Positions 1 to 14,249 of a stretch of DNA of 64,000 nucleotides are shown here, one piece after another. The DNA is from Acidobacteriota bacterium (GTDB lineage: Bacteria; Acidobacteriota; UBA6911; RPQK01; JAJDTT01). Under the pieces are notes generated by a model. The model did no database searches. It was not told the origin of the DNA and saw only the letters and a program-made list of their open reading frames with translations. Position 1 is the first letter of the stretch. Each line of letters begins with the position of its first letter. Made by a program: the position numbers and the translations under genes. The stretch lies in contig OZ253580.1 of assembly GCA_965263035.1 (NCBI GenBank), positions 2,496,001-2,560,000 on the forward strand, in the 5' to 3' direction.

Positions 1-69
1 GCCGTCGGCCAGCCGGTGCGCGTCCAGGTGCGCTTTCGAGATGTCGATGCCTACGGTATGCTGTTTCAT
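1..69 (-). CDS. IS110-family transposase/recombinase, N-terminal 23 aa (runs off window start)
   Basis: Manual translation from ATG at 69: MKQHTVGIDISKAHLDAHRLADG. The GIDxSK motif fits the IS110 RuvC-like DEDD domain start. AGGAG upstream. Not in the ORF track. Confidence 0.85.
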   Translation of the reverse strand, partial: MKQHTVGIDISKAHLDAHRLADG

Positions 70-79
70 CTTTCCGGTC

Positions 80-233
80 TCCTGTGCTTGTCATTCGGGC
101 CTTGATGCCCTTGTATCCATTCAGGACATCGGGAAAGACGGTGGCCGACCTGACTGCTTTTCGGTTCGCAAAAGTCCGCGGCGGTACGGTCCAGCCACCG
201 CCGTCCGGGTCGCTCATGAGCGACCCGGACGGG
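80..233 (-). ncRNA. Putative IS110 bridge RNA (5' hairpin, target-binding loop, donor-binding loop)
   Basis: 5' palindrome at 201-232. Stem GGCGGTGGC/GCCACCGTC encloses ACCGCCGC (178-185) and GAAAAG (157-162). Stems CCTG/CAGG and GGGC/GCCC enclose ATGGATAC (113-120) and GACAAG (87-92). Confidence 0.75.
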
Positions 234-249
234 CCTATTTAAACAGACA

Positions 250-401
250 AGCGGCGGTTTTCTTGCCGCCGATCAGGGGGGAACGGCGGTTTCCAACCGC
301 CGAACTCCTGAGTGACAGTTTGGCGTCTAAGAATGAGCGATTGGAAATCGCCTCTCCGTTCGTCTAAGAATGGGCGATTGGAAATCGCCCCTCCGTTCGT
401 C
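250..401. repeat. REP/REPIN cluster (GGAG-tagged palindromes)
   Basis: gcggcggttttcttgccgccg, gaacggcggtttccaaccgccg and two tandem g(g/a)gcgattggaaatcgcc(c/t)ctcc units. Confidence 0.85.
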
Positions 402-469
402 TTTTTGCAGCCTCTGTTCATGGCTTGCGGAGCAGGTCCCGGCGCCATATGCCACAAGGAGAACCCGAA

Positions 470-661
470 ATGAGCCCGGAACTTATTGGAATCATCGTTG
501 CCTCTATCGCGTTGGGAGGGTTGATGATCTCCCTGTTTGCCCGGCTGCGATCCGACATCAGCCGGCTCCAGGATGGATTCGCTCAGATCCGGCAACCCGT
601 GGCACACATTGAGGGCCTCCTGAAAGGCCTGCGTGACTCCATTGCCGCACGGACAGATTGA
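470..661 (+). CDS. Small N-terminal TM + coiled-coil protein (63 aa)
   Basis: AAGGAGA RBS, then MSPELIGIIVASIALGGLMISLF (TM) and a heptad-like tail ...VAHIEGLL. Similar ORFs at 21081 and 30740. Confidence 0.7.
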   Translation: MSPELIGIIVASIALGGLMISLFARLRSDISRLQDGFAQIRQPVAHIEGLLKGLRDSIAARTD

Positions 662-838
662 GCGATCACGAGTAAGAGGCCACGACTTACCAGACCTGAT
701 CCTCAATAAGCGTGTCCATGGCACTCTGGAGCTGCCGGTTGTAGGTTCCGAACTCCTTATCCTCCGTCGGGGAGTTTAAGAATGGGCGATTGGAAATCGC
801 CCCTCCTATTCCTTCCTCTCCGGTAGACTTGTCTATCC

Positions 839-1789
839 ATGCGCGTCAGTGTCGTGATTCCGACCTACAACCGGTCCCGGATCCTGGGGCGGACGTTGGA
901 GGCGCTGGGCCGGCAGTCGCTGGCGAAGCGTTTCGTGGACGACTCGGGGGTCGGCGTTCCCTACGAGGTGATCGTGGTGGACGACGGGTCCTCGGACGAC
1001 ACGGCCGATCGGGTTCGGGGGATGGCGGGGGGGTATCCGGTCCCGTTGATCTACCTCCACCAGGAGAACCGCAGGCAGGGGGCGGCGCGGAACCTGGGCG
1101 TGCGGCGGGCCCGTGGGGACTGGTTGGTCTTTCTGGGGGACGACACGGTTCCCGAGGCCGATTTCCTGGTGGAGCATCTGCGGGCCCGCGGCGGCGGGGA
1201 AGAGGGAGCGGACCGGGTAGTGGCGATCGGGTACACGCCCTGGGCCCGAGAGTATTGCCCGACCCGGTTCATGAAGTACGTGGGGGAGGAGGGGTGGCAG
1301 TTCGGGTTCTCGCTGATCGAGGACAAATCGTCCGTCCCCTTCAATTTCTTCTACACCAGCAACCTCTCCATCTCCCGGGAGTTCTTCCGGGAGTCGGGTG
1401 GGTTCGACGAGGACTTCGGCGAGTACGGGTGGGAGGACATCGAACTGGGGTGGCGGCTCCACCGGATGGGGATGCGGCTGGTCTACCATCCCCGGGCGGT
1501 GGCCTACCATCACCACCCGACCTCGGTGCGGGCCTTCGTCCGCCGCCAGCGGCGGGTCGGCGCCTCGGCCTGGAACTTCTACCGGAAGCATCCCGAGATG
1601 GCGGACTTTCTCAACGTCGGCCGCCTGCCCCGTTACCGGCTCCGGGACCGGATCCGCATGGAGCTTCTGACCTGGATCTGCGCCTGGACCGAGAGGAGGC
1701 TTTGGCCAGACCTGAGTTCTTTCTATCCCGACCTCATGAGCTACCACTACAATTTGGGGTTGCTTCAAGGCCGGCGGGAGGAACGGTAG
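839..1789 (+). CDS. Glycosyltransferase family 2
   Basis: VSVVIPTYNR, VVDDGSSD, ARNLG, FLGDD, GGFDE..YGWEDIE motifs. Confidence 0.93.
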   Translation: MRVSVVIPTYNRSRILGRTLEALGRQSLAKRFVDDSGVGVPYEVIVVDDGSSDDTADRVRGMAGGYPVPLIYLHQENRRQGAARNLGVRRARGDWLVFLGDDTVPEADFLVEHLRARGGGEEGADRVVAIGYTPWAREYCPTRFMKYVGEEGWQFGFSLIEDKSSVPFNFFYTSNLSISREFFRESGGFDEDFGEYGWEDIELGWRLHRMGMRLVYHPRAVAYHHHPTSVRAFVRRQRRVGASAWNFYRKHPEMADFLNVGRLPRYRLRDRIRMELLTWICAWTERRLWPDLSSFYPDLMSYHYNLGLLQGRREER

Positions 1790-13780: not shown

Positions 13781-14249
13781 TGTCAAGAGGAGGAATGAAA
13801 GTTGTTTCGTTAGTACGTGATCTGTCCAGTCCCTTCAAGGCGAGGCCAGGATGAGCCTTTTCCCCACCGAGAGGAGGCGGGTATGGAGCCGTATCCGCCG
13901 CGCGCCGCGGAGCGGGCGATGAAGGTGCAGGAAGTCGTCCTTCGAGCGATGAGTGGACAGTTCAACGGGATCCAGGCGGCCGAGATCATTGGCATGAGTC
14001 CCCCGCAGCATGCGGCGGCGGCGCTATGAGGAGTACGGCTACGACGGACTATACGATCGACGGCGGAAGCGCCCCTCGCCGAAGCGAGTCCCCGTGGCCA
14101 CGGTCGAGAAGTTGCTGCGGCTGAACCGGGAGAAGCATCGGGACTTCAAAGTGACGCATTTGGCGGAGAAGCTGCATTCGGAGGAAGGGATCGAACTGAG
14201 TCGCAATTGGACGATCTCCCACTTTCTAGCGGGTGGTGTCTATTATTAG
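13781..14249 (+). mobile_element. Truncated, frameshifted ISNCY/IS481-like (IS1202-type) transposase remnant with probable left end
   Basis: TGTCAAG end at 13781. From 13883, MEPYP..AMKVQEVVLRAM..QAAEIIG, then shifted to RRYEEYGYDGLYDRRR.PSPKRVP..HLAEKL. HTH region only; no DDE core. Confidence 0.75.

Follow-up and report, generated by a model that had tools for sequence, protein, structure and literature searches.

In Escherichia coli, the insertion sequence (IS) IS621 is reported to encode a two-domain recombinase with DEDD and Ser-Gly catalytic residues and, 5' of the gene, a bridge RNA in which a target loop is followed by a donor loop. The same reports describe a CT core, a promoter split between the right and left ends, and targeting of repetitive extragenic palindromic (REP) sequences (PMC11208160, PMC11208158). 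Left guides pair with the bottom strand and therefore have the sequence of the top one; right guides pair with the top strand and so read as its reverse complement; every guide includes the core (PMC11208160). Each right guide is described as being followed, directly on its 3' side, by two handshake nucleotides, which pair with position 7 (and 6) in the other DNA once strands have been exchanged (PMC11208158). These features, including the guide logic and the handshake dinucleotides, are shared by the element described here, which begins in a 64,000-nucleotide stretch of the genome of an Acidobacteriota bacterium (GCA_965263035.1, contig OZ253580.1; G000:C1:2496001-2560000; hereafter "the window") and which was followed into the genome left of it. 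As far as sequence can tell, it is very probably a complete IS110-family IS of the IS621/ISCro4 type (IS110 group), guided by a bridge RNA and present in 13 copies.

The recombinase supports this assignment. On the minus strand, an ATG at 69-67 opens MKQHTVGIDISK, in which a first-pass annotation of the window had recognized an IS110-type N-terminus; the gene leaves the window and has 315 codons in all. Its product matches PF01548 (DEDD_Tnp_IS110; residues 6-146, 1.4e-21) and PF02371 (Transposase_20; residues 189-272, 1.8e-18), and passes the NCBIfam model NF033542, "IS110 family RNA-guided transposase," with 197.6 bits against a cut-off of 140. In the PDB, the only solved relatives are the ISCro4 transposase (9t56, E 2.3e-34 over residues 3-299), which is the closest solved-structure match and was compared at the protein level, and IS621 (E 4e-31). 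Residues D9, E52, D94, D97, and S233-G234 align with D11, E60, D102, D105, and S241-G242 of IS621 (the chain numbering of IS621 in the alignment is native +2). In IS621, mutation of any of the five catalytic residues is reported to abolish recombination, and the conserved G242 to stabilize the S241 loop (PMC11208158). Judged from these alignments, the protein is a recombinase whose N-terminal domain is RuvC-like (DEDD) and whose C-terminal domain is Tnp (Transposase_20); it has all of the IS621 catalytic residues and is only distantly related to IS621 (phmmer E 4e-31).

The limits of the element can be read directly. It occupies 1,479 bp on the minus strand, from window position 251 down to 1,228 bases before the window start, and consists of the following parts at its ends and at its insertion site:

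1 to 69, minus strand: first 23 codons of the 315-aa IS110-family recombinase, whose gene continues to genome position 2495122.
237 to 242, minus strand: TTAAAT, the -10 half of a predicted promoter, completed only by joining the right end (TTGCAA) to the left end.
250 to 251, minus strand: CT core, left copy; a single CT is found at paralogous and syntenic empty sites.
252 to 270, minus strand: REP hairpin GGCGGCAAGAAAACCGCCG, whose last 7 nt (258-252, ACCGCCG) are the left target (LT).
301-285, minus strand: second REP hairpin.
Genome 2494773-2494774, outside the window: CT core, right copy.
Genome 2494773, window position -1228: right end of the element.

Both ends carry CT and there are no terminal inverted repeats; since either junction has a CT and empty sites have only one, this is a simple insertion at the core dinucleotide. 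The left junction reads ACCGCCG-CT-TGTC at 258-246 (ACCGCCG 258-252, CT 251-250, TGTC 249-246), just as first annotated. The right end, which follows a 350-nt non-coding tail behind the recombinase gene, reads ...CACTTGCAAC-ATGGATA-CT, with CTCGAGTTTGATGG outside, TTGCAA just inside, and the REP tail beyond. The first-pass annotation had foretold a right end of this form (ATGGATA-CT, a -35-like box inside, then the remainder of the REP), and the donor that it deduced, ATGGATA-CT-TGTC, can now be read at the two ends. It had also described the REP as truncated. Here it needs correction: the hairpin at 270-252 is intact, and the element parts it from its CT-CC tail.

Between the left end and the gene, and so 5' of the latter, lies a leader of about 165 nt; it has two guide loops, each enclosed by a stem, first the target loop and then the donor loop. 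Its parts are:

201 to 232, minus strand: 5' hairpin with a perfect 14-bp stem.
139 to 200, minus strand: target-binding loop domain; closing stem 200-188 with 150-139, compensatory at 2 pairs (AU to GC, CG to UA).
177 to 185, minus strand: left target guide ACCGCCG-C(G), that is, ACCGCCGC at 185-178; identical to the flank ACCGCCG plus the core C.
154 to 162, minus strand: right target guide in the family register, GAAAAGCAG; would pair with CT-GCTTTTC.
153-152, minus strand: handshake dinucleotide UC after the right target guide.
77 to 127, minus strand: donor-binding loop domain; closing stem GTCCTG (127-122) with CAGGAGAC (84-77).
110-107 with 100-97, minus strand: donor-loop inner stem; in the donor domain as a whole, compensatory changes at 3 outer and 2 inner pairs.
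113 to 120, minus strand: left donor guide ATGGATA-C, that is, ATGGATAC; identical to the right end of the element, ATGGATA-CT.
85 to 92, minus strand: right donor guide GACAAG (92-87) and handshake CA (86-85); GACAAG is the reverse complement of CT-TGTC at the left end.

The fold has a lower minimum free energy (MFE) than 200 of 200 shuffled sequences (z = -4.7). For a consensus fold, 14 leaders that differ from one another were aligned: 4 are alleles of this genome, 8 come from assemblies of other Acidobacteriota, and 2 from assemblies of Alphaproteobacteria. This fold keeps both closing stems and the donor-loop inner stem, with compensatory changes at 7 of 25 pairs. The two loops, the loop 1 guide that repeats seven flanking bases and the core C, and the two loop 2 guides had all been placed correctly at first reading, and to the base.

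The handshake positions can be followed in the same alignment. The base after the AG of the right target guide is U in 14/14 leaders, and donor position 7 is A. After the AG of the right donor guide, the base is C where target position 7 is G (Acidobacteriota leaders) and A where it is T (Alphaproteobacteria leaders). This pattern fits the Hiraizumi model, although a single change in evolution would account for all of it.

The left target belongs to a REP family whose unit has the consensus GGCGG-N3-GAAA-N-CCGCCG-CT-CC. In the 6.2-Mb genome, ACCGCCGCTCC occurs 91 times, against about 12 occurrences expected from base composition. Ten sites of ACCGCCGCT-CC lie in the window, each preceded by a GGCGG...GAAA hairpin, and the recurrences listed by the first-pass annotation are right within one base:

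11452, 18005, 18038, 23889, 41034, 47071, and 63995, plus strand: REP sites, ACCGCCGCT-CC.
62462, 46403, and 24267, minus strand: REP sites, ACCGCCGCT-CC.

In this respect the element resembles ISPpu9 and ISPpu10 of Pseudomonas putida, which are IS110-family elements found in REP or stem-loop-bearing intergenic repeats (PMC12288879; 10.64898/2026.03.19.712850), although their host phylum and their sequences are different. For ISPpu10, it is reported that a stem-loop 5' of the paired target is an additional determinant of specificity (10.64898/2026.03.19.712850). As in ISPpu10, the target here is the 3' foot of a hairpin; three copies (c1-c3) sit at sites without a REP hairpin.

A BLAST search of the genome with the element identified 12 full-length copies and one truncated at position 1166, as well as one 27-nt solo left end and one structure made of right ends only. 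In these 13 copies, the guides vary together with the flanks. The left guide matches the left flank at 7/7 positions in 12 copies and at 6/7 in the remaining one, c8. The ACCGCCGC left guide (ACCGCCG) is carried by 10/10 of the copies at (A/G)CCGCCG-CT, at REPs (nine exact flanks, with c8 at 6/7), and the ACCGACGC left guide (ACCGACG) by 3/3 of the copies at ACCGACG-CT (c1-c3), all of them exact. The proposal that other copies would be found at ACCGCCG-CT is thus borne out, with the addition of ACCGACG-CT where the guide matches; none of the three findings that the first-pass annotation had named as refuting, which concern the protein family, the right end, and the sites of the other copies, was seen. 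Right guides come in four alleles, most of which fit their own flanks:

GTATGGGAG: predicts CT-CCCATAC; flanks CCCATTC, CCCATTT, CCCAATC, CCCGTTC, CCTGTTC, and CCTCTCC.
GAAAAGGAG (c5): predicts CCTTTTC; flank CCTCTTC.
GTTTGGGAG: predicts CCCAAAC; flanks CCCTAAA (twice) and CCCTAGA.
GCAG allele: common to c0 (the window copy), c6, and c12; c6, the other full copy with this allele, mismatches its own flank at the first right-arm position.

The three copies with the ACCGACG guide sit 36 bp inside the left end of an IS1182-family element, where there is no REP hairpin. This host element (genome 3693744-3695499, L087:144-1899) is about 1.76 kb long, has the terminal repeat CTAGGAGGCTGTCCGAGAA, and encodes a 506-aa transposase (NF033551, 396 bits against a cut-off of 270); at least eight further copies are present in the genome. 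Two of its left ends lack the IS110 element (genome 1954209 and 4173843) and read ACCGACG-CT-CCC with a single CT, that is, they are paralogous empty sites. Another four IS1182 copies have ACCGAAG-CT-CCTT there, and all of these are unoccupied (4/4). With the ACCGACG guide at IS1182 sites and the ACCGAAG copies empty, a one-base left-guide allele accompanies a shift from REPs to a fixed IS1182 site. A comparable habit is known from IS1111-group elements of the wider IS110 superfamily, which insert into another mobile element at a fixed site within its end. In those elements, the guide RNA presumably lies 3' of the gene; in c1-c3, by contrast, the switch is a single-base allele of a REP-targeting guide. 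The IS1182-family element also hosts an IS110 remnant consisting of a right end only, at the same fixed site 36 bp inside its left end.

Several copies show other changes. Both c6 (genome 4766667-4765112) and c12 (5836385-5835261) have a common 1-nt insertion that causes a frameshift in the recombinase after codon 5, and they occupy different sites; this shared frameshift at separate sites suggests mobilization in trans or gene conversion. In c3 (genome 654685-653129), the reading frame stops at 274 aa. A 76-bp palindromic insertion in the right-end non-coding region (element position ~1241-1242) is present in 9/12 full copies (c3-c11; e.g., genome 653129-654685) and absent from the window copy; its 3' arm, CCCG(A/G)CG-CT-CCCC, resembles the target motif of the element itself. 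At genome 4205113-4205524, two inverted right ends are joined at this palindrome.

Relatives extend the covariation beyond this genome. The element was found in 5/8 other genomes of the same genus and in one genome of another family, that is, in 7 of the 41 genomes searched when G000 is included. Left-guide alleles of these relatives match their own flanks (GTCGCCG, exact in 3/4 flanks, ATGGTCG, and GTGTATG), as do the alleles TTCGTGT and ATTGTGT of Alphaproteobacteria assemblies, where the protein is only 38-44% identical. Of 70 elements scanned in total, 66 could be parsed; the exceptions are four Alphaproteobacteria loci (L019, L041, L044, L045), in which no target loop was parsable. Among the 61 elements with a known left flank, the left guide matches it at 7/7 positions in 44, at 6/7 in 8, and at 5 or fewer in 9; L086, with two CTTGTCT motifs and hence an ambiguous end, was left out of this count. 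The seven left-guide alleles match their own modal flank at 6.3/7 positions, vs. 2.7/7 for the flanks of other alleles. Counted as contiguous pairs from the core, right guides (57 elements with a known right flank) reach 4 pairs in 36 elements, 5 in 7, 3 in 5, 2 in 7, and 0 in 2, so that 55/57 have at least 2; the right guide of the window copy matches at 0/7. Several relatives have a right target guide (RTG) that pairs up to 5 positions past the core, as compared with the four-base RTG reported for IS621 (PMC11208160).

Three further loci, L060, L061, and L067 (G003, G001), contribute right flanks only and are not in the pooled table. No CT-TGTC left end lies within 400 nt upstream of them. 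They have the same two loops and the same right end, with a different TTGACA-containing sequence upstream of the 5' hairpin; their left end may be longer or may have been replaced.

The same donor-guide motifs occur in the Acidobacteriota and Alphaproteobacteria relatives, whose element ends were read directly in the former and by motif search in the latter. In addition, guide-target concordance and covariation across IS110 orthologues, as well as longer right guides in some of them, have already been published (PMC11208160). The "new specificity" proposed in the first-pass annotation was thus an overstatement.

Could the leader be a structured 5' untranslated region (UTR) and nothing else, its matches to ends and flanks being coincidental? 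A Shine-Dalgarno sequence, AGGAG (83-79, minus strand), does sit in the 3' strand of the donor-loop closing stem (window 77-84), so the fold could also regulate translation, and folding of the bridge RNA could mask recombinase translation from the same transcript. However, three independent matches of 6-8 nt fall in predicted loops, and guide alleles covary with flanks both within the genome and across genomes, which leaves the coincidence explanation with next to no probability.

A guided, bridge-RNA-encoding element is nonetheless not favored by every observation. Many of the 66 parsed elements are copies in a few genomes, so their counts are not independent, the independent events being allele switches. 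The target-loop inner stem was not recovered in the 14-leader consensus fold. No Rfam family was found: a scan of window 1-1000 (E up to 10) returned chance-level matches only, with E from 0.69 to 9.7. Both left guides have G or A instead of U at the second position of the core, so that only the C of CT is matched, which also sets the element apart from IS621. The right guide of c0 matches its flank at 0/7 positions, and its own RNA would not predict its own site. Finally, no joint between right end and left end was seen in contigs of public runs; these runs were examined as assembled contigs, which cannot show RNA ends or rare circles, and the result is no evidence against circles.

The mismatch of c0 depends on how its right target guide is read. 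The first-pass annotation took GAAAAG (162-157) for this guide, and with it a target ACCGCCG-CT-TTTC, for which use of REPs would require tolerance of right-side mismatches. In favor of that register, GAAAAG-CA (162-155) in the target loop parallels GACAAG-CA (92-85) in the donor loop, and the AG-CA ending that it noticed is literally present in both loops. In relatives, however, the register of the target loop differs: the core-pairing AG-U (A46 G47 T48) is invariant in 14/14 aligned leaders and stands 3 nt 3' of the AG in GAAAAG. The right guide of c0 therefore reads GAAAAGCAG, ends in GCAG, and predicts CT-GCTTTTC. This family register lets the c5 allele GAAAAGGAG match its flank, CT-CCTCTTC, at 6/7 positions after the core. 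Moreover, the U after its AG can pair with donor position 7 (A), which the CA after the AG of GAAAAG cannot. The actual right flank begins CT-CTCG, and ACCGCCG-CT-TTTC (ACCGCCGCTTTTC) has 0 occurrences in the genome. The GAAAAG-to-TTTC register, which we consider highly unlikely, was consequently rejected on the leader alignment, the flank matches, and the zero genomic TTTC sites; the left half of the proposed target, ACCGCCG-CT, holds. In the family register, the right guide matches the real right flank, CT-CTCGAGT, at 0/7 positions.

How, then, did the window copy come to its site? In a sister genome (G007), the syntenic locus is empty and reads REP-CT-CCCG-AGTTCGATGGACACG (short form AGTTCGATGG), with a single CT; in G000, it reads REP-CT[element]CT-CTCG-AGTTTGATGGACACG (short form AGTTTGATGG). 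Both flanks are collinear between the two genomes, with 80-88% identity. Collinear flanks and a single CT point to a simple insertion into a REP with the tail CT-C(C/T)CG, with no rearrangement needed. Rearrangements at the element do occur, as the 13 homologous copies, the solo left-end stub, and the right-end-only structure indicate, and flanks stemming from two insertions joined by inter-copy recombination (inversion or deletion) would explain the right-arm mismatch. But besides the collinearity with G007, the REP foot keeps its register relative to AGTT(C/T)GATGGACACG, with a single CT at the position of the element. Rearranged flanks are very improbable and were rejected on account of this syntenic empty site.

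The sequence of c0 is itself a mosaic, with a backbone and first leader sites like those of c1-c3 and a target-loop 3' half like that of c6 and c12. Its site, CT-C(C/T)CG, fits the common GGGAG guide (G-C pairs or one G-T wobble) and not GCAG. This combination favors insertion by a GGAG- or GGGAG-type guide over insertion by the left arm alone. With a probability somewhat above even, we propose that such a right guide directed the insertion, either the copy's own, later replaced by inter-copy recombination, or that of a sister copy RNA acting in trans, which would be possible because all copies share donor ends.

A one-sided match, in which the left arm and the core sufficed with the present GCAG right guide and the right arm stayed idle, is a more doubtful account, although it has arguments of its own. 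The left guide of c0 matches at 7/7 positions and the right guide at 0/7, and in c6, the other full GCAG copy, the first position of the right arm is mismatched as well. According to a 2026 preprint, the core and one matching arm suffice for IS621 recombination in vitro, and this explains many off-target insertions; its in vivo re-analysis could not separate left-target-only events from full matches (10.64898/2026.08.31.748434). Against a one-sided match, it is exactly the target-loop 3' half of c0 that has another origin, which fits a replacement of the guide after insertion, and the site CT-C(C/T)CG suits the common GGGAG guide.

For the genome as a whole, we put forward at even chances that the guide alleles partition the sites: three right-guide alleles would serve different REP tails (CT-CCCAT, CT-CCTTT, and a GCAG variant), a one-base left allele (ACCGCCG to ACCGACG) would have moved a sub-lineage to IS1182, and c0 would represent either a natural half-match (left-arm-only) insertion or a guide swap by recombination.

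By homology with IS621, from which transcription, circle formation, and activity are inferred, the element would be excised as a circle in which the right end, joined to the left end, makes a sigma-70 promoter, TTGCAA-17-TTAAAT. This junction promoter would transcribe the leader, that is, the bridge RNA. The donor loop would then pair with the joined ends ATGGATA-CT-TGTC and the target loop with ACCGCCG-CT at the 3' foot of the REP hairpin, and the DEDD/Ser recombinase would exchange strands at the CT core. The predicted promoter (TTGCAA-17 nt-TTAAAT) can be assembled from the ends of 12/12 full-length copies. Since TTGCAA lies at the right end and TTAAAT at the left, and an integrated copy has CAAGAA where the -35 box would be, the promoter appears to be split, as has been described for IS621. 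In the public-run contigs, one from a DNA run spans the right-end junction of c0 without differences (L001 89-501), and the leader and the gene are both covered by contigs assembled from RNA libraries, although such coverage does not prove transcription. Two groups of listed joints were discarded: those that skip 2044-2048, with sides of 22-24 letters that fall in REPs, and those from 1972 to 472, which fit other copies with a REP beside the right end.

Two further observations concern the surroundings. Small paralogous genes lie on both sides of the element in divergent orientation (window 425-661, plus strand; genome 2494324-2494578, minus strand), each encoding about 80 aa with a hydrophobic N-terminal stretch and a common ...EGLLKGLR... 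motif. Sister genomes have several members of this family, some of them in tandem; at this locus, G007 is without the one on the window side. Farther into the window, 13804-13922 (minus strand as aligned) shows 72% identity over 122 aligned bases to element positions 1315-1433, in the right-end non-coding region. It belongs to a region, 13804-14010, in which the plus strand from 13883 reads as a short stop-truncated N-terminal fragment (MEPYPPRAAERAMKVQEVVLRAMSGQ...). Some other mobile element may have left its end here as a relic, and the IS110 tail may be partly derived from an element of that kind.

All sequence-testable defining features of IS110-group bridge-RNA elements are present here. 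Donor and target differ from those of IS621, being ATGGATA-CT-TGTC and ACCGCCG-CT-CC in this element. REP targeting by IS110-family elements has already been published for ISPpu9 and ISPpu10 (PMC12288879; 10.64898/2026.03.19.712850). A literature search, which was not aimed at within-genome guide alleles, found no paper describing this element. New in this analysis are an element from a poorly sampled phylum, a genome in which several guide alleles can be seen side by side, a left-guide change of one base that goes with an IS1182 end as target, and an intact copy with a mismatched right guide.

Bridge recombinases are under development as programmable tools for genome insertion, and this locus adds a recombinase/RNA pair whose guides can be read from sequence. 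The 13 copies are a small natural experiment in which copies whose left guide differs by one base have a different class of target, the end of another IS in place of a REP. The right-guide match extends from 0 to 5 positions past the core, and one intact copy occupies a site that is unmatched by its own right guide, which touches on two practical questions, how much of the right arm is needed in vivo and whether RNAs of sister copies can act in trans. From the point of view of the host, this is an ordinary IS family with REPs as safe landing sites. If the guide alleles do partition the sites, the genome would be a record, made in nature, of the evolution of bridge-RNA specificity and of the strictness with which each arm is read in vivo.

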